DNA of 64,000 nt from an uncultured Candidatus Saccharibacteria bacterium (GCA_964490395.1 CAZBAS010000001.1:211815-275814), one strand, 5' to 3'; positions 4,695 to 49,701 are shown, counted from the first letter of the stretch. Notes: generated by a model from the sequence alone, not told the origin. Numbers and translations: made by a program.

Positions 4695-4806
4695 GAATTA
4701 TGAATTAAGAATTATAGAATTAGGAATAACGATTCACACTACCCCTTTCCCTATGGAAAGGGGTAGTTATTTCTTAGTTCATAATTCTATAATTCTTAAT
4801 TCATAC
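4695..4806. repeat. AT-rich palindromic element (GAATTATGAATTAAGAATTATAGAATTAGG ... inverted copy) enclosing a terminator-like hairpin
   Basis: Arms 4695-4731 and 4768-4806 are reverse complements; central hairpin acccctttccctatggaaaggggt; family members at 14108-14210, 14441-14472, 30637-30690, 50921-51030, 51262-51374, 62736-62826. Confidence 0.6.
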
Positions 4807-4822
4807 TTTTTTGCTTGCAAAA

Positions 4823-4852
4823 AGCTGAAGGCTGTGCTATAATATATTTAAC
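4823..4852 (+). promoter_or_regulatory. sigma70-like promoter (TTGCAA-17-TATAAT)
   Basis: ttgcaaaaagctgaaggctgtgctataat upstream of the first FN3 secreted protein gene. Confidence 0.4.
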
Positions 4853-5013: not shown

Positions 5014-5952
5014 ATGAAAACTCGAACCATGCAAAAGGGATGGCAGGCCTCTATGAAACGTTCTCTAAGTTTTCTTGGCGTTCTGGTAGCCGCCGCTGGG
5101 TTGGTGGGGCCAAGTTTGGTACTTGCCCAGCCTGCAATATCTAGCGTGCAAGCTTCACAGATAACAGCGTCCAGCGCCGTTATCTCGTGGCAGACAGACG
5201 TTGCTTCTGACTCTTATGTTTCCTATGTAGGCGCAGACGACACAGATGCTCAGCTTGCAACAAATGACACCTTGGTTACGAGTCATAGCGTAACCCTCAC
5301 AGGACTCAAGGCAAATACCGTGTATTCGTTTGCAGTTAACTCTGCTGACGCGCAAGGGGATAACGCAGCGCTAAACGGCACTGACTTTACTACACTTGGT
5401 GTTGGAGGCGGTACGCCACCACCTACCCCTACCCCGGTTCCAGTTCCAACTCCTACCCCAACTCCTGTGCCTCCTGCAAACCCAGGACAGGGTACGGGCC
5501 TTACGGTACCAACTGGTCTCCAGTATCAGCCCCCAGTAGTAGTTACTCCGGTCTACCCAACGGCCACTCTAGCCAGAGAAAATGGTACCATCTATTTTAT
5601 AATGGGTAAGGATGGGGTAAAAGTACCTTTTACCACTATGGGTGCATTTACTGGGCTCGGCTATAAGCTAAGCAATGTGCGAGATTTAGACCTATCATCT
5701 TTTCGTTTGCCAGTTACGTATTTCATAGAAAATAGCGTGCAACAGCACCCTTGGGGTTCTATTGTTGAAAAGAATGGCACGCTTTACTACAGCCACATAT
5801 CTGGAATGATTCCTATTCCTTCTATGAATGTGTTTAACGCCAATGGTTTTACATCGGCCATGATAGTGCGCATGAATAGCGCCGATGAAGAAGTGCTTCA
5901 AAACTATCCTGTCGCATATCCGCTTGAATCGAACGACGATCGCATTATGTAA
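5014..5952 (+). CDS. secreted protein: signal peptide, fibronectin type III-like domain, Pro/Thr-rich linker, conserved C-terminal domain of unknown function
   Basis: Signal peptide MKRSLSFLGVLVAAAGLVGPSLVLAQP; FN3-like segment ISSVQASQITASSAVISWQT...YSFAVNSADAQG; linker GTPPPTPTPVPVPTPTPTPVPP; probable start at internal Met near 5053. Confidence 0.55.
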   Translation: MKTRTMQKGWQASMKRSLSFLGVLVAAAGLVGPSLVLAQPAISSVQASQITASSAVISWQTDVASDSYVSYVGADDTDAQLATNDTLVTSHSVTLTGLKANTVYSFAVNSADAQGDNAALNGTDFTTLGVGGGTPPPTPTPVPVPTPTPTPVPPANPGQGTGLTVPTGLQYQPPVVVTPVYPTATLARENGTIYFIMGKDGVKVPFTTMGAFTGLGYKLSNVRDLDLSSFRLPVTYFIENSVQQHPWGSIVEKNGTLYYSHISGMIPIPSMNVFNANGFTSAMIVRMNSADEEVLQNYPVAYPLESNDDRIM

Positions 5953-5963
5953 GACATGAAAGT

Positions 5964-6752
5964 GTGAGGGTTATGAAGTACGCTCGTATAATATACATCG
6001 CGGCATTTGCCTGTTTGTGCGTGGCCAGTATGCCAGCGCGCACGGCGCATGCCGCTATTTCTATCTCAAATGTAACAGTGCGGCCTGTAAGTAATACAAG
6101 CGTTACTATTACCTGGGATAGCAGCAAGGCAGGGGACTCCTGGGTGGGGTATACTGCTGCAGGCTCAACAAACCAGCAGTCTAAAGTGACTGTACTTTCG
6201 GTGCAGGCGCATAGCGTAACGCTCACAGACCTGCAGCCCGGCACTGAGTATACCTACGAAGTAAATACCCAAACCCCCCAAGGTGACATAGGCTTTATAG
6301 CCGGGCTCAAATTTACCACAACGGGGCAAACTGGTACTTTGCCTCTTAGTGCCCCGTGCGGTACTCTGGCAAAGTCTGGGTCAGGTATATTTTTTCTTAC
6401 GGGTAAAGATAAAGTAAAAATTCCGTTTACATCCATGGCGGCATTTACGGGTTTGGGGTATGATCTAAAAAATGTAAAAACCATGGATGTGTCCAGCTAT
6501 AAATCTTCCGGCAGCTATTACCTAAGCAGCGCTACTCAAGAACACCCATGGTGCAGCTGGATGAAGTGGAAAGATAATACCATTTATTATAGCCATCCCA
6601 GTGGCGCCATCCCCGTGCCAAGCTGGGACGTGTTTATAAACAATGGCGGTCGCGCAGACCTTATAGTTCCCATGAATGCTGCGGATGATGCTGTGTGGGC
6701 CAAGAATCCAAACCTACCAGTACTGCAGTTGAGTGACAGCCGAATACTATAA
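5964..6752 (+). CDS. secreted protein, paralog of 5014-5952 (FN3-like domain plus same C-terminal domain, no PT linker)
   Basis: Signal peptide; ISNVTVRPVSNTSVTITWDS FN3-like; C-terminal block GKDKVKIPFTSMAAFTGLGYDLKNV...HPW...YYSHPSGAIPVPS aligns to first paralog. Confidence 0.55.
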   Translation: MRVMKYARIIYIAAFACLCVASMPARTAHAAISISNVTVRPVSNTSVTITWDSSKAGDSWVGYTAAGSTNQQSKVTVLSVQAHSVTLTDLQPGTEYTYEVNTQTPQGDIGFIAGLKFTTTGQTGTLPLSAPCGTLAKSGSGIFFLTGKDKVKIPFTSMAAFTGLGYDLKNVKTMDVSSYKSSGSYYLSSATQEHPWCSWMKWKDNTIYYSHPSGAIPVPSWDVFINNGGRADLIVPMNAADDAVWAKNPNLPVLQLSDSRIL

Positions 6753-6753
6753 C

Positions 6754-6786
6754 CAAAAAAACCGCCACCCGGCGGTTTGTTTATCC
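6754..6786 (+). terminator. intrinsic terminator
   Basis: aaaaaaaccgccacccggcggtttgtttat: GC stem plus T-run after FN3 paralog 2. Confidence 0.6.
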
Positions 6787-6802
6787 CGTTAGGGATAATC
6801 CT

Positions 6803-6840
6803 GTTCCTCTCCCCAGGCCTGGGGAGAGGCTAGGAGAGAG
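6803..6840. repeat. CTCTCCCCAGGCCTGGGGAGAGG hairpin repeat, copy 1 (3' flank of DUF559 gene)
   Basis: Perfect palindrome cctctccccaggcctggggagagg followed by ctaggagagagg; same core at 48759-48781; variant at 7195-7227. Confidence 0.65.
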
Positions 6841-7192
6841 GTCGAAATGCTTGCTGTTTGATTACTTCTAGTACTCCCGCAATGTTGCTATCTACATCAT
6901 TATTCCAGAAGTGTAATACTGCGTATCCATTCTTTTCTAAGTATGTTTGCTTATCTGCATCTTTCTGTTTCTCTATCATCTCGCTATGTTGGCCACCGTC
7001 TAGTTCTATAATTAGCTTTTTCTCGTTGCAGCAGAAGTCAGCTATGTAAGGCCCGATCGGAACTTGGCGTTTAAACTTGAAACCATAGAAACGATTGCCG
7101 CGTAGGTAGTACCATAGTTTGGTCTCCCAGGGTGTTTGAGCAGTTCGTAGCTTTTTAGCATTTTCTAGATATATATGGTGCTTACTGTACAT
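6830..7192 (-). CDS. DUF559 endonuclease domain protein (Vsr-like PD-(D/E)xK fold)
   Basis: QVPIGPYIADFCCNEKKLIIELDGGQH and YAVLHFWNNDV motifs typical of DUF559; ORF extends to 7234 but the N-terminal 14 codons are read through the hairpin repeat, so the Met at 7192 is the likelier start. Confidence 0.65.
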   Translation of the reverse strand: MYSKHHIYLENAKKLRTAQTPWETKLWYYLRGNRFYGFKFKRQVPIGPYIADFCCNEKKLIIELDGGQHSEMIEKQKDADKQTYLEKNGYAVLHFWNNDVDSNIAGVLEVIKQQAFRPLS

Positions 7193-7194
7193 AC

Positions 7195-7227
7195 ACCTCT
7201 CCCAGCCCTCTCCAGGCAGGAGAGGGG
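7195..7227. repeat. hairpin repeat variant, copy 2 (5' flank of DUF559 gene)
   Basis: cctctcccagccctctccaggcaggagagggg: imperfect palindrome related to 6806-6830. Confidence 0.5.
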
Positions 7228-7236
7228 AATACATAA

Positions 7237-7259
7237 GACCGGCCTTTGTGGCCGGTCTT
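7237..7259. terminator. hairpin downstream of trpS (agaccggcctttgtggccggtct)
   Basis: 9 bp GC stem; weak T-run, so may be a processing or terminator stem. Confidence 0.35.
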
Positions 7260-7264
7260 AAAGA

Positions 7265-8275
7265 CTAGAAATATCCTATCTTCATGGCAGTGCGGACTTC
7301 ATGCATAGTTTTCTCGGCTTCGGCACGTGCTTTCTTTGTGCCTTCCGCGAGAATGTGTACGACTTCTTCGGGTTTTGCTGCCCACTCTTCTCTTCGTTGT
7401 CGAATAGGGGTGAGTATGGTTTCGAGTGTTTCAAATAACTTATTTTTTACCGCAACGTCGCCAAGTCCGCCCTTCGTGTATGCGGCTTTAAGTTCAGCAA
7501 CTTCTGTCTTGTCTGCATGGAACATGTCCAAATAACTAAACACTACGTTGCCTTCTACTTTGCCTGGGTCTTCAACACGTACATGTCCAGGATCTGTATA
7601 CGCAGACATTACTTTCTGTTTTACTACCTCTGTTGGGTCACTGAGGAAAATAGCATTGCCTAGTGACTTGCTCATCTTTGCTGTGCCATCAAGTCCTGGT
7701 AAGCGACTCTCTAGAGGATTCTGCGGAATGAGGTGCTCTACCGTTTTAAATACTGGTCCGTAGTACGAATTAAATTTGTGAGCTATTTCATTTGTTTGTT
7801 CTATCATAGGCGCTTGATCTGCACCTACGGGCACTAGGTCTGCTTTACAGAATAATATATCTGCAGCTTGACTCACCGGATAGCAGAGGAATCCTGCTGG
7901 TATATCCCGTTCGTATCCTTTTTGTTGTATTTCGGCTTTTACTGTTGGGTTCCGTTCTAGGCGTGCAACAGTAACTAAATTCAAAAAGAATATAGTGAGC
8001 TCGGCTATTTCCGGTACGAGAGATTGTATAAATATAGTAGTCTTTTCTGGGTCTATGCCAACAGCTAAATAGTCCAGGGCGACTTCAAAAATATTGTCGC
8101 GAACTTTTTGAGGGTTGTCGGCATTATCGGTCAGAGCTTGTACGTCGGCAAGCATTACAAACTGATTGTATTCATCTTGCAGCTTTACCCGGTTGCGGAG
8201 CGAGCCAACATAGTGGCCAAGGTGTAATTTACCGGTAGGTCTGTCCCCGGTGAGAATTCTCTTTTTTTCTTCCAT
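7265..8275 (-). CDS. trpS: tryptophanyl-tRNA synthetase
   Basis: [16 protein letters not shown] (HIGH), KMSKSLGN (KMSKS), class Ic aaRS length. Confidence 0.9.
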
Positions 8276-18225: not shown

Positions 18226-18260
18226 AACCTCTTCTCAAAAGAAGAGGTTTTTATTTTTTT
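18226..18260 (+). terminator. intrinsic terminator
   Basis: aacctcttctcaaaagaagaggtttttattttttt. Confidence 0.65.
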
Positions 18261-19570: not shown

Positions 19571-21808
19571 CTACAGGCTTTTTTTAATTATTTCTGCTTT
19601 GGCTTTACCAACTAACTTTTCTAATTCTTCTAACTCTACTTCCTTTATTCTTGCTACTGAGCCAAACTTTAGTTTGAGGAGTTTTTTAGTTTTCGGGCCT
19701 ATGCCGGGGATGGTGTCGAGCGCAGATTTGGTCGCTTGTTTACTGCGAAGCTGGCGGTGGAAGGTTATACCAAAGCGGTGGGCTTCATCGCGTAGGCGCT
19801 GGAGTATCTGCAAGGCAAGTTCATCGTGACTAAGAATGATTGGTTCAGGGTTGTTAGGTAAAAATATTTCCTCAATGCGTTTTGCGAGGCCAATCATGGG
19901 AATAGCTGCTAGCTTAGAGCTGTTAGCTTCTAGTTCAGAGCCGTTATTGCTTTCTGCTTTTTCTTTCGCAGCTATCACTTCTGCCTGCGCTTCCAGCGCA
20001 GCGCTAAGCTGTCCTTTGCCACCATCTATAACTATTAAGTCCGGCCGCGGCCAGAGGTTTTGCCCCCCTCCTCTTGAGGAGGGGCTAGGGGAGGTCGTAG
20101 AGCTGTTTACTTTTTTGATCCGTTTACTATTTTTATCATCTGCTGTGACCCCCTCGAGCGCCCCCTCAAGAGGGGGAGGGCTCAGGTGCGCGAGTCTGCG
20201 AGTCAGTGTTTCCCGCATCATGGCAAAATCGTCCGGAGTGTCTTTGCTGCGGATTTTGAACTTACGATATTCTGACTTTGCTGGTTTGCCATCTATAAAC
20301 ACGACCATGCTGCCGACCGGGTTTGTTCCTTGGGTATTGGACATGTCGTAGCATTCAATGCGTCTGGGAAGCTCGGGCAGGCCCAGAAGCTTTTGAAGCT
20401 TTAGTAAGGCTTCGTGTAGTTTGTCTATATCTGTGGCGTCGCTTTCGAGCTGCTTGCGCACGCATTCCTCAGCGTTTAATTGTCCCAGTTTTATGAGTTG
20501 CAATAATTTTCCACGGTGGGGAATACTAATGGGGATACTCTTTCCTTTTCTTTGTGCAAGTAATTCAGTAATAAGTGAAAGTTCGGAAAGTGGGAACTGG
20601 GTGAAAATTTTATCAGGCAGGTCTGTGGTATCAGCGTAATACGTTTCCGAGAACGTTTGAATAATACGAGATTCCGTGTCTTGCTCTCCTCCTCTTGAGG
20701 AGGAGTTGGAGGAGGTCATAGAAACTTTTGATGTATTATTATGCTCTGCTACGACCTCACCTAGCCTCTCCTCAAGAGGAGAGGAACCAGACAAGATCGC
20801 TGGTGCGCCATACACAAAGTTTTCTTTGTCGGTGAGCCTACCGTCCCGTACTTTGAAAAGGTTTATGCAATACAGCCCACTTTGAATACCAAGTGAAATA
20901 AGATCGTAATTTACTTTGGTGGGGAACTGAGCTATTTGCCGCTCGTCTAGCAGCTCCAAAGCACGGAGCTGGTCGCGGAGCCTGGCTGCAAGCTCGAACC
21001 GGGTTTGTTCAGATGCTTCTTCCATGGCGCGCTGGACCTCTTGTTTTACTTCACGAGTCTTGCCATTTAAAAAGAGTTGTATGCGCTGCAAGTTTTTTTG
21101 ATACTCTTCAATGCTTATAGCTCCCACGCATATGCCAGGGCACCGATGTAGATGATAATAGAAACAGGGACGATTGCTAATTTCCGTGTTGGCGCAGTAG
21201 GGGAATATGCGGCGCACAAAATCGAGCGTCTCACGAATTTTGCGAACTGAAGAGTATGGCCCAAAGTACTGGTTATTTTTAGTGGGCGTGTGCAGAAGGG
21301 CATCTTCTGCAGCAGCTGCCCTTCTGGTCCCTGCTGCGGTTACGATTTTGCTCTTGACTTTCGACTTTATTATTTTCCGTTGGTGCTTGCCACTTCCCCA
21401 GGCAGCAGAAGGGTTTAAAAAGACTTGTAGCTCTCTATCTTCTTCAATTTTTCGCGCATAGCCTATTTGAGGGATTTGCGTGCCGTAGTCTATAACTATG
21501 AATGCATAGTTTTTGTCGTCTTTGAGTTTAATGTTGTACTTTGGCGAGTGTTTTTTTATGAGTGTGTTTTCCAGGAACAGCGCCTCTAGCTCGGTACGCG
21601 CAACTATGTAGTCTATGTCTCGTGCATCCTCTATTAAAAACGGCAACTGTGGTCGTTTATCCTGCCCAAAATACTGGCTTACGCGTTTGCGCAAGTCTTT
21701 GGCTTTGCCCACATATAAAACTAACCCAGCTGCATCTTTAAATAGATAGCACCCAGGGCTATGGGGAAAATGAGTAATTTGTTGCTTAAGTTCTGGCATT
21801 TGTGCCAT
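19571..21808 (-). CDS. uvrC: excinuclease ABC subunit C (UvrC) carrying two in-frame repeat-derived insertions
   Basis: GIY-YIG N-terminus (CYLFKDAAGLVLYVGKAKDLRKRVSQY), UvrBC, RNase H-like and C-terminal HhH domains; 745 aa versus ~600 typical. Confidence 0.9.
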   Translation of the reverse strand: MAQMPELKQQITHFPHSPGCYLFKDAAGLVLYVGKAKDLRKRVSQYFGQDKRPQLPFLIEDARDIDYIVARTELEALFLENTLIKKHSPKYNIKLKDDKNYAFIVIDYGTQIPQIGYARKIEEDRELQVFLNPSAAWGSGKHQRKIIKSKVKSKIVTAAGTRRAAAAEDALLHTPTKNNQYFGPYSSVRKIRETLDFVRRIFPYCANTEISNRPCFYYHLHRCPGICVGAISIEEYQKNLQRIQLFLNGKTREVKQEVQRAMEEASEQTRFELAARLRDQLRALELLDERQIAQFPTKVNYDLISLGIQSGLYCINLFKVRDGRLTDKENFVYGAPAILSGSSPLEERLGEVVAEHNNTSKVSMTSSNSSSRGGEQDTESRIIQTFSETYYADTTDLPDKIFTQFPLSELSLITELLAQRKGKSIPISIPHRGKLLQLIKLGQLNAEECVRKQLESDATDIDKLHEALLKLQKLLGLPELPRRIECYDMSNTQGTNPVGSMVVFIDGKPAKSEYRKFKIRSKDTPDDFAMMRETLTRRLAHLSPPPLEGALEGVTADDKNSKRIKKVNSSTTSPSPSSRGGGQNLWPRPDLIVIDGGKGQLSAALEAQAEVIAAKEKAESNNGSELEANSSKLAAIPMIGLAKRIEEIFLPNNPEPIILSHDELALQILQRLRDEAHRFGITFHRQLRSKQATKSALDTIPGIGPKTKKLLKLKFGSVARIKEVELEELEKLVGKAKAEIIKKSL
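20063..20180. repeat. ~115 bp palindromic element inserted in frame in uvrC, copy 1
   Basis: ccccctcctcttgaggaggggctaggggaggtcgtagag ... ctgctgtgaccccctcgagcgccccctcaagagggggaggg; encodes PPPLEGALEGV...SPSPSSRGGGQ. Confidence 0.65.
20684..20786. repeat. ~105 bp palindromic element inserted in frame in uvrC, copy 2
   Basis: ctctcctcctcttgaggaggagttggaggaggtcatagaaac ... ctgctacgacctcacctagcctctcctcaagaggagagg; encodes SSPLEERLGEVV...SSRGGEQ; termini are mutual reverse complements. Confidence 0.65.
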
Positions 21809-48448: not shown

Positions 48449-49701
48449 TTGGATGCGGATGGACAACAGTTTTCTTTTATATAAAGCGGGAGTTCTTCTA
48501 TGCTTTGGATTGTAGTGATGGGTAGCTGAACGCCGCCTGACGGCTGGAGGTCGGAAATGGTTGCGCTGTTATTAATAGACGAAGTTTTCGGTATTGCGGC
48601 GGTTGGTTTGGTAAGGGTAATTTTAAGGGCAAGGCCTTTTTTAGTTTCCGCGCTCCAGTCTTGGTCAAAGATAAAATTTCCTAGAGAATAATAGATGGGT
48701 TTGCAATTGGGATTTCGGTTTATCTCTTGTGGTGTAGATTCGTTCGACCTCTCTCCATCTCTCCCCAGGCCTGGGGAGAGGGCCGGAGCCGAGCCGTTAT
48801 ACTCGGAAATCGTACTAGTTCTTGGGCAATATATTTCTTTATTTTGGACCCAGTGCGGGTGAGCGCCTATGACTATATCTGCACCAGCGTCTATGGCTGC
48901 ATGGGCAAAGTCTATTTGATCTTGGTTTGCTTTGGGGGTGTATTCTGTTCCGGCGTGCATAGTCACGACTAGGAAGTCGATTTTAGATTTCAGATTGTAG
49001 ATTGCAGATTTAAGACGCTCGACATCTTCAATTCGAGCTACATAACTATTTATAGTTTTACCGCCATCGTTTACAGAAGAATACGAAGCACCAATGAATC
49101 CTATTTTAATGCCATTCTTTTCTATAATGGCCGGAGTCCATGCTTCGTCGAGTGTTTTGCCAGTACCCATGTGCAGTAGTCCATTATCATTGAGCACTTT
49201 TTCAGTAGTAGTAATGCCGTCTAGTCCTTGGTCAAACGCATGATTGTTTGCAAGGTTCAGTACAGCAAAATTGTATTCTTTCAGGCCAGCGACATTTGTT
49301 TTGGGCGCGTTAAACACAAGTGTGTTTTTTGCAGTAAACGCATCGGTTTTTGAGAAGGGCGACTCAAGATTGGCAAAGTTAAAGTCAGAAGACTTGAGCA
49401 AGCCCACTATATTATGGAAAGGGTACAGAGGGTCTTTTTTTGCTTGTATGGTTGCGGCAACGCTTCGAGAAAGAGAGATATCGCCAAATGCTAAAAAGGT
49501 TACGGTGCTTGGTTGTTGCTGCGTAAGATTGGTTGCTGCTGCGTTCTGGCCTTGCGTATAAAAATCTTGAAATGACTTATCTTGGTTAGCAGCAGAATTG
49601 TGGGTAAGCGGTGAGCCGTGGTTAAGTTGAAAAACACCAAGTATAGTGGCGGCTATGACGACTATTAGTATGGGAGTGAAGACAAGGACTTTACGAGTCA
49701 T
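48445..49701 (-). CDS. CapA family protein (poly-gamma-glutamate/capsule biosynthesis metallophosphatase-like), N-terminal membrane anchor
   Basis: DFNFANLESPF, LANNHAFDQG, VTMHAGTEY, GAHPHWVQ, YSLGNFIFDQ; ORF opens at 49755, likely start MTRKVLVF. Confidence 0.8.
   Translation of the reverse strand: MTRKVLVFTPILIVVIAATILGVFQLNHGSPLTHNSAANQDKSFQDFYTQGQNAAATNLTQQQPSTVTFLAFGDISLSRSVAATIQAKKDPLYPFHNIVGLLKSSDFNFANLESPFSKTDAFTAKNTLVFNAPKTNVAGLKEYNFAVLNLANNHAFDQGLDGITTTEKVLNDNGLLHMGTGKTLDEAWTPAIIEKNGIKIGFIGASYSSVNDGGKTINSYVARIEDVERLKSAIYNLKSKIDFLVVTMHAGTEYTPKANQDQIDFAHAAIDAGADIVIGAHPHWVQNKEIYCPRTSTISEYNGSAPALSPGLGRDGERSNESTPQEINRNPNCKPIYYSLGNFIFDQDWSAETKKGLALKITLTKPTAAIPKTSSINNSATISDLQPSGGVQLPITTIQSIEELPLYIKENCCPSASK
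48748..48790. repeat. CTCTCCCCAGGCCTGGGGAGAGG hairpin repeat, copy 3 (in frame inside CapA gene)
   Basis: gacctctctccatctctccccaggcctggggagagggccggagc encoding ...APALSPGLGRDGERS... Confidence 0.65.

Follow-up and report, generated by a model that had tools for sequence, protein, structure and literature searches.

A predicted DUF559 nuclease gene framed by inverted BoxC/PIT/TM-type repeats in a Saccharibacteria genome, and its possible REP/RAYT-like relation to gene-less copies of the repeat

The window, as the term is used here, is the whole 64-kb stretch of uncultured Candidatus Saccharibacteria DNA that was analysed, with positions counted from its first letter. Between the convergent genes trpS and an fn3-domain gene lies a small DUF559 gene bounded on both sides by inverted copies of a GC-rich repeat; further copies of the repeat, without the gene, are located in capA and uvrC. 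The features are as follows.

6806–7227, gene on the minus strand: the DUF559 module including both repeat ends.
6830–7192, minus strand: DUF559 gene (YcjD-type, Vsr-fold PD-(D/E)XK-like), 120 aa plus stop; PF04480, database call P0001, structural match 3hrl.
6806–6844, minus strand: 3′ (right) end, consisting of hairpin, CTA, third block and TCG; a triplex motif of apparent BoxC/TM type.
7196–7227, minus strand: 5′ (left) end, an inverted and diverged copy of the 3′ end, kept in the related locus L003.
6759–6778, strand unassigned: intrinsic terminator of canonical form, separating fn3 gene and module and lying outside the repeat.
48745–48781, plus strand: solo copy of the 3′ end in capA, CGACCTCTCTCC-A-TCTCTCCCCAGGCCTGGGGAGAGG; capA itself is on the minus strand.
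20684–20784, plus strand: gene-less motif pair 1 in uvrC, 101 bp, MITE-like, in frame; from a pyrimidine-stem hairpin scan.
20063–20180, minus strand: gene-less motif pair 2 in uvrC, 118 bp, in frame; fold z = −4.25.

The hairpin of the 3′ end is the perfect 24-bp palindrome CCTCTCCCCAGGCCTGGGGAGAGG (6806–6829), to which the earlier note on this DNA had drawn attention. When the palindrome search was run against 100 shuffles of the sequence, neither the palindrome nor its one-mismatch copy at 48758–48781 was matched in any of them; a relaxed pattern, run as well, added 7207–7225 and 20765–20784, with 0 expected. Past the palindrome follow the spacer CTA (6830–6832), which is the TAG stop of the gene, the third block GGAGAGAGG (6833–6841) and TCG, so that the repeat takes in the final four codons (RPLS) as well as the stop. 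Read in the orientation of the gene, this end is CGA-CCTCTCTCC-TAG-CCTCTCCCC-AGGCCT-GGGGAGAGG. The 5′ end is composed of a third block (7196–7203, the reverse complement of GGGAGAGG), a 2-nt spacer and a hairpin with 8-bp arms at 7206–7226, CCCTCTCC-AGGCA-GGAGAGGG. It stops 3 nt upstream of the ATG and reads, in gene orientation, CCCTCTCC-TGCC-TGGAGAGGG-CT-GGGAGAGG-tgt-ATG. Each end is thus a three-part motif: a hairpin with a pyrimidine stem is joined, through a short loop, by a third block of purines that mirrors the purine arm (TGGAGAGGG-CT-GGGAGAGG and GGGGAGAGG-CTA-GGAGAGAGG). Since hairpin and third block are present at both ends and are mutually inverted, the ends amount to imperfect terminal inverted repeats of ~32–39 bp. 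The module region matched no Rfam family. No target-site duplication is evident at the boundaries of the module or of the uvrC pairs, where the flanks are too diverged to fix the junctions.

The diverged 5′ copy had also been described in the earlier note, with the ORF reading through it. The copy is present, but the read-through, a 134-aa ORF, is probably not a real gene: the database call P0001 gives 120 aa starting at the ATG at 7192, homologues align from about residue 8–12, and the syntenic orthologue in L003 (81 % amino acid identity) lacks an upstream ATG and keeps both repeat ends. The 5′ repeat copy therefore sits just upstream of the 120-aa CDS.

Assignment of the gene to DUF559, already proposed, is borne out by a Pfam search in which the ORF matched PF04480 over profile positions 5–106 of 109 (E = 7e-38, 129 bits against a cut-off of 20.6). 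Its sole other match in that search was to MTES_1575, below threshold, and neither a DDE nor an HUH/Y1 (IS200-like) transposase domain was found in the ORF. The closest solved structure is that of a Vsr-fold protein, PDB 3hrl (E = 7.5e-22). Among 60 aligned DUF559 homologues D52, E63 and D65 are invariant and H69 is conserved in at least 90 %; these four are putative catalytic residues of a predicted nuclease. There is no second DUF559 copy in the 64-kb window or in the loci of relatives examined, and no methyltransferase adjoins the gene in the window.

The ORF is flanked by the stops of trpS (7265) and of the fn3-domain gene (6752). A trpS terminator at 7235–7259 is separate from the module and, together with that at 6759–6778, places the module between two convergent genes that are already terminated. 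The DUF559 unit is a discrete block of ~420 bp dropped between trpS and fn3. GC-rich stem loops at gene ends could, as the earlier note allowed, be nothing more than the usual form of intrinsic terminators in this genome. However, no T-run follows the hairpins on either strand, the only terminator-like site within 6500–7500 is that at 6759–6778, with trpS having its own, real terminators in the window look different (e.g. 18227–18248), and copies of the hairpin are in frame inside capA and uvrC. The missing T-runs and the separate canonical terminators effectively refute the terminator reading, which is now scarcely credible.

Within the 64-kb window two copies of the repeat flank DUF559, one is solitary in capA and four are in uvrC. 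The capA copy was known from the earlier note as an in-frame occurrence of the hairpin core, with one mismatch at 48758–48781. It is indeed in frame, yet it is more than the core: it is identical to the DUF559 3′ end at 37 of 39 nt and carries CGACCTCTCTCC beyond the hairpin, which makes it a copy of the entire 3′ end. It lies inside an insertion of 120 nt (40 aa; residues 312–351, window 48703–48822), set against the solved homologue 8gq9, in which residues 305 and 306 are contiguous. On this alignment the 40 aa appear to be a lineage-specific insertion.

The two motif pairs in uvrC, at 20063–20180 and 20684–20784, had been missed. Pair 1 is laid out as hairpin + GGAGGAGG ... CGA-CCTCACC-TAG-hairpin; pair 2 has the opposite orientation. 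Both follow the order hairpin, third block ... CGA, third block, TAG, hairpin, and so share the architecture and orientation logic of the DUF559 unit, minus the gene. Protein and DNA alignments show pair 1 to be missing from the closest uvrC relative (80 % identity). Pair 2 is shared with the distant relative L086 (70 % identity) and missing from the closer L085, and another relative has an independent motif pair at the pair-1 site. The pairs are insertion polymorphisms in variable surface loops. Their interiors show no similarity to the DUF559 coding sequence and no coding remnant, only end-proximal GGTCR/YGACC being shared; thus, an origin as internal-deletion derivatives cannot be shown.

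As side observations, the uvrC gene (19571–21808, minus strand) encodes 745 aa, compared with about 600 aa in more distant relatives, and UvrC has three lineage-specific insertion regions, two of which bear the motif pairs. At the same hot spots the UvrC proteins of relatives carry other short repeat peptides, e.g. SNLKPTTSNL, QFPISNEN and LQVTVDSKE. The coding region of uvrA in the relative L087 (8196–8245) contains the motif copy CCCTCCC-TAA-CCCCCCC-TCTT-GAGGGGGGG-AA-GAGGGGG, and in-frame insertion of the repeat therefore extends beyond uvrC and capA.

Short palindromic repeats of another kind, the Rickettsia palindromic elements (RPEs), were reportedly found in 2000 by Ogata et al. to lie in frame in essential genes, to which they are said to add surface peptides. 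RPEs are not known to have a cognate enzyme gene. The insertions in uvrC, in capA and in uvrA of L087 resemble RPEs in being in frame, and differ from them in their pyrimidine/purine triplex layout, which RPEs lack. The findings in UvrC suggest that several families of in-frame mini-insertions, recalling RPEs, exist in this lineage of the candidate phyla radiation.

A total of 1267 DUF559 homologues were found, many of which end, N- or C-terminally, in LSPSLSPHLGRG, PLPNSWGGVGER or PSPLRGEGKE, peptides that are translations of the same kind of repeat DNA. Examination of 80 DUF559 loci from named genomes (Saccharibacteria, Doudnabacteria, Alpha-, Beta- and Gammaproteobacteria, Nitrospirota, Bacteroidota, Melainabacteria, Binatia and others) revealed a pyrimidine-stem hairpin within 205 nt upstream of the gene in 73 of the 80 and within 230 nt downstream likewise in 73 of the 80. 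The background in the same loci is 0.164 hairpins per kb, or about 0.03 expected per flank (about 3/80), so that hairpins are enriched some 27-fold beside the gene. For those hairpins that carry a third block, the density close to the gene exceeds the background about 60-fold. That DUF559 genes elsewhere might lack the hairpins, an outcome on which the earlier note had staked its proposal, is therefore not what these loci show.

In all 69 two-sided elements the left end aligns more closely to the right end when the latter is reverse-complemented than when it is taken directly, and asymmetric loops are likewise reverse-complemented between the two ends. Loop sequences differ from locus to locus, and the distance from motif to start codon ranges from about 20 to 160 nt. 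Ends of the same element score 0.418 against each other, which 0 of 2000 permutations reached, versus 0.126 across elements. One locus, L057, holds two diverged DUF559 paralogues, each with its own motif variant. Hairpins dispersed over the rest of a locus resemble the flanks of their cognate gene (0.30) more than those of GC-matched loci (0.21; p = 0.006). The inverted, co-varying ends, the L057 paralogues and the likeness of dispersed copies to their cognate flanks indicate that gene and ends evolve together as a single unit, and the association of the DUF559 gene with the flanking repeat can be regarded as established with very little doubt.

Several variants of this arrangement occur. A minority of units (L035, L048, L049 and L071, of gut Muribaculaceae or Melainabacteria type) have the third block placed outside each hairpin, away from the gene, their ends still being inverted copies. 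L022 has two DUF559 copies 783 bp apart. Two gene calls are fused, P0241 with three DUF559 stretches in 377 aa and P0248 with two in 262 aa, and are probably tandem units read through in-frame repeats. The exact 24-mer of the window was found at only three loci in metagenome contigs: one resembles the 3′ end of a DUF559 gene at which the contig breaks off, and at the other two the hairpin stands alone, lacking a third block, in GC contexts that are unrelated.

By its layout the repeat of the module appears to be a known one, a correspondence that the earlier note had not recognised: the BoxC element, which is the same as the PIT (potential intrastrand triplex) element and the TM_ECO triplex motif (Holder et al. 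2015, PMC4666352). Earlier descriptions of BoxC and PIT are those of Bergler 1992 and Hoyne/Maher 2000, as cited in PMC4666352. Shared with BoxC/PIT/TM are the order of pyrimidine arm, loop, purine arm, short loop (TTA/CTA type) and mirror-repeat purine block, the GC-rich composition, a length of about 37–56 bp, and, within the 64 kb of this genome covered here, the occurrence of several dispersed copies, some in inverted pairs. The sequence differs, the window having the stem CCTCTCC(CC) with third block GGGAGAGG/GGAGAGAGG where BoxC has GGGTGAGGG. Two further differences concern context. The E. coli motif is reported to be always intergenic, whereas copies in the window are in frame in capA and uvrC; and no associated mobility gene is reported there, whereas here two copies frame a predicted nuclease gene.

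According to Holder et al. (2015, PMC4666352), TM_ECO has 23 copies in MG1655, among them five inverted pairs, and TM motifs occur in >260 bacterial genomes; the motif forms triplexes in vitro, PIT elements block DNA polymerase in vitro, and TM loci show raised rearrangement. No transposase, integrase or mobile-element association has ever been found for TM (PMC4666352), and ycjD, DUF559 and endonucleases are absent from the text of that paper. No paper linking DUF559 or ycjD to the BoxC/TM repeat was found in the openly searchable (non-subscription) literature. The repeat family, the protein family and the concept of a repeat with a resident enzyme are all known; no description of the BoxC/TM–DUF559 pairing seems to exist in the searchable literature. 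The pairing is in direct contradiction to the published view that the repeat has no associated gene, and the enzyme class differs from that of RAYTs.

The repeats might instead act in cis on a nuclease gene that is potentially toxic, as operators through which it regulates itself or as insulating barriers against read-through, or they might be the arms of an invertible on/off cassette, in which case the dispersed copies would be unrelated by-products. Several features fit this. Ending 3 nt short of the ATG, the third block GGGAGAGG could serve as a ribosome-binding site as well, a terminator on either side insulates the module, and the polymerase block by PIT elements would suit such a role. 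Additionally, DUF559 is enriched among predicted programmed-inversion targets, with an odds ratio of 14.3 (Milman et al. 2023). However, the spacing between motif and start codon varies across loci, from some 20 to some 160 nt, no invertase is nearby, and, as cited in Holder et al. 2015 (PMC4666352), Maher saw no promoter or terminator activity of PIT elements. The near-identical gene-less copies in capA and uvrC and the 17–23 dispersed copies in E. coli would be left unexplained, and a regulatory or cassette function is accordingly given a small probability.

The repeat and the protein family meet again in E. coli, where the DUF559 gene ycjD (b1289) sits between sapF and fabI. By tblastn YcjD is about 48 % identical to the window protein, and the two belong to the same protein subfamily as N. 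gonorrhoeae NGO0050 (PDB 3hrl). Compared with the window module, K-12 ycjD has lost the upstream BoxC copy and retains only a degenerate hairpin at its 3′ end. A full BoxC, CCCCTCGCCCC-TCT-GGGGAGAGGG-TTA-GGGTGAGGGG, is located about 200 nt downstream of the gene. This BoxC sequence is present in every one of 5426 complete E. coli genomes, at 17 places in the median genome, while ycjD, single-copy in E. coli, is found in 3378 (62 %); the remaining 38 % keep BoxC without ycjD.

The ycjD gene and the eefRABCD operon are alternative occupants of the sapF–fabI site (PMC12817139). They are mutually exclusive and measure 0.75 kb (ycjD plus BoxC) and 7.9 kb (eefRABCD); an O157 genome (L092) carries the eef+ allele with no BoxC at either junction. 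Phylogroups A, B1 and C are ycjD+, whereas B2, D and E lack ycjD and are eef+. Separately, the fabI–ycjD interval of K-12 (L084; NC_000913, 1351039–1351407) contains what is left of another ycjD 3′ end, METVLENIRQGLNRPS-like, and beyond it the full BoxC; this arrangement suggests a decayed tandem DUF559 unit.

DUF559 could also be an ordinary Vsr-like repair or structure-processing nuclease, with the repeat spread by some other activity and merely accumulating beside the gene. The DUF559 protein VsrA of Caulobacter behaves as a methylation-linked Vsr-like enzyme, functionally tied to cytosine methylation and SOS, the hairpin loops in the window contain CCWGG sites, and the persistence of BoxC in ycjD-less E. 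coli fits as well. Passive accumulation, however, predicts neither the inverted, co-varying ends of 69 of 69 elements across phyla nor the local enrichment of the hairpins. Moreover, the CCWGG sites are not general, since the loops differ between loci, and the window gene has no adjoining methyltransferase. This explanation is judged quite unlikely.

The module is instead interpreted, with a probability put at about 0.5, as one copy of a widespread gene-plus-repeat package in which a nuclease acts on the repeat that flanks its own gene, as in REP/RAYT systems. The nuclease would recognise the composite motif, either as duplex or as folded single strand, and would nick at or near it. Nicking would then generate, spread or homogenise gene-less copies, be they solo ends as in capA or pairs as in uvrC, and the gene itself would stay a single, mostly vertically inherited copy between its cognate sites. 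RAYTs with REPINs show just this combination of a resident single-copy gene and scattered repeats. The architecture of the unit, its generality, the co-variation of its ends, the dispersed cognate copies and the gene-less insertion polymorphism are observed; action of the nuclease on the motif and its part in dispersal of the repeat are what we infer from them. Arguing for the REP/RAYT-like reading are the co-varying inverted ends, the dispersed cognate-like copies, the invariant putative catalytic residues, the lack of uvrC pair 1 in the closest relative, the position of ycjD beside BoxC, and the tie of a motif without a mobility gene to local genome rearrangement (Holder et al. 2015). Against it stand the lack of recent transposition of the gene, the absence of a definable target-site duplication, the lost upstream copy of K-12 ycjD and the methylation-linked function of Caulobacter VsrA; the presence of BoxC in every E. 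coli genome, with ycjD in 62 %, argues against strict dependence of the repeat on the gene. The proposal of the earlier note, that a nuclease gene bracketed by a repeat also found gene-less recalls REP/RAYT or homing modules, is in this sense strongly supported, well beyond the window.

Mobility is favoured by the insertion polymorphisms of gene-less copies, by the tandem DUF559 units and by the alternative occupants of the trpS–fn3 and sapF–fabI sites; active transposition of the gene is disfavoured by the single-copy state of ycjD, by the syntenic orthologue of the window gene and by the contexts of identical proteins. Identical DUF559 proteins were not found in several contexts: three proteins, present on 10–15 contigs each, had one context apiece, which gives no sign of recent transposition of the gene. 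At the trpS–fn3 site of the relatives L086 (21201–21650) and L087 (19721–20089) a gene of the 23S_rRNA_IVP family (PF05635) replaces DUF559. No clean case of the same site being empty in one genome and DUF559-occupied in another was found at trpS–fn3 in the relatives or at sapF–fabI in E. coli. It was also noted that the 23S_rRNA_IVP gene is flanked in L086 and L087 by inverted purine-rich (GAAGAG...) and pyrimidine-rich (CTCTTC...) sequences, and is thus a second small gene-plus-inverted-flank unit at this site.

In a homing-type module the nuclease would cut inside empty motif pairs and the gene would be copied in through homology of the repeat ends, making the gene the invader and not the mobiliser. 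The gene-less pairs of uvrC, with the same end architecture and orientation, would be natural targets, and the tandem or multi-domain DUF559 arrays (L022, and P0241 with its three domains) and the different small gene at the trpS–fn3 site of relatives would fit as well. The DUF559/Vsr clan also includes a bona fide homing endonuclease, I-Bth0305I (PDB 3r3p), a Vsr-related enzyme of the same PD-(D/E)XK clade as DUF559 (PMC3424549). Its fold is related and it, too, is a selfish nuclease gene within its own target context; it resides, however, in a phage group I intron, whereas the window module is without intron or intein and its flanks are a genome-wide repeat. Most sampled genomes have one DUF559 copy in a fixed context, where many pairs should give many copies of the gene. 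Homology arms of 35–50 bp are short, and no empty and occupied alleles of one site were found. Homing is considered unlikely.

The REP/RAYT-like reading can be compared directly with the REP/REPIN–RAYT system (Bertels and Rainey 2011, PMC3116915). Common to both are a single-copy, largely vertical gene between inverted short palindromic repeats, dispersal of the repeat as singlets and inverted doublets, and co-variation of the repeat sequence with the gene copy. They differ in the enzyme, which here is a ~115-aa Vsr-fold DUF559 protein of predicted activity and not an HUH/Y1 transposase, and in the third block and triplex potential of the module repeat. With IS elements and MITEs the DUF559 elements share terminal inverted repeats, inverted similarity exceeding direct similarity in 69/69.

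BoxC/PIT/TM repeats have been catalogued for three decades without a known protein partner or spreading mechanism, and DUF559 is a very large family (22,867 cluster representatives) with essentially no assigned function. The co-varying, inverted framing of DUF559 genes ties these two orphans together and suggests that the DUF559 nuclease is the missing partner enzyme of the BoxC repeat; E. coli K-12 lends itself to direct study of the two together. The wider claim, that YcjD-type DUF559 proteins are the cognate enzymes of BoxC/PIT/TM repeats throughout Bacteria and constitute a second REPIN–RAYT-like system, is put forward tentatively. If true, it would describe a resident-nuclease system that is independent of REPIN–RAYT and built on a ~115-aa Vsr-fold nuclease, give a cognate gene to a repeat family that has had none since 1992, and explain the origin of the family, its inverted-pair organisation and the local genome instability. 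No smaller self-contained gene-plus-TIR unit than this module of about 420 bp would then be known. Translation of the repeats accounts for the spurious N- and C-terminal extensions of the ‘PLSPGxGRG / GEGxGVRG’ kind on DUF559 gene calls, and the inverted ends of the units account for the enrichment of DUF559 among predicted programmed-inversion targets (Milman et al. 2023).

Two minor observations concern the neighbourhood of the module. Window 4700–4830 contains a long AT-rich inverted repeat, aattatgaattaagaattatagaatta ... taattctataattcttaattcata, whose centre is the hairpin CTACCCCTTTCCC-TA-TGGAAAGGGGTAG (4739–4766), not of BoxC type. It is located upstream of the first of two tandem paralogous genes for secreted fn3 / Pur_ac_phosph_N-like proteins (5014–5952 and 5964–6752), which have their C-terminal halves in common and are conserved as a pair in the relatives L001, L003 and L087.
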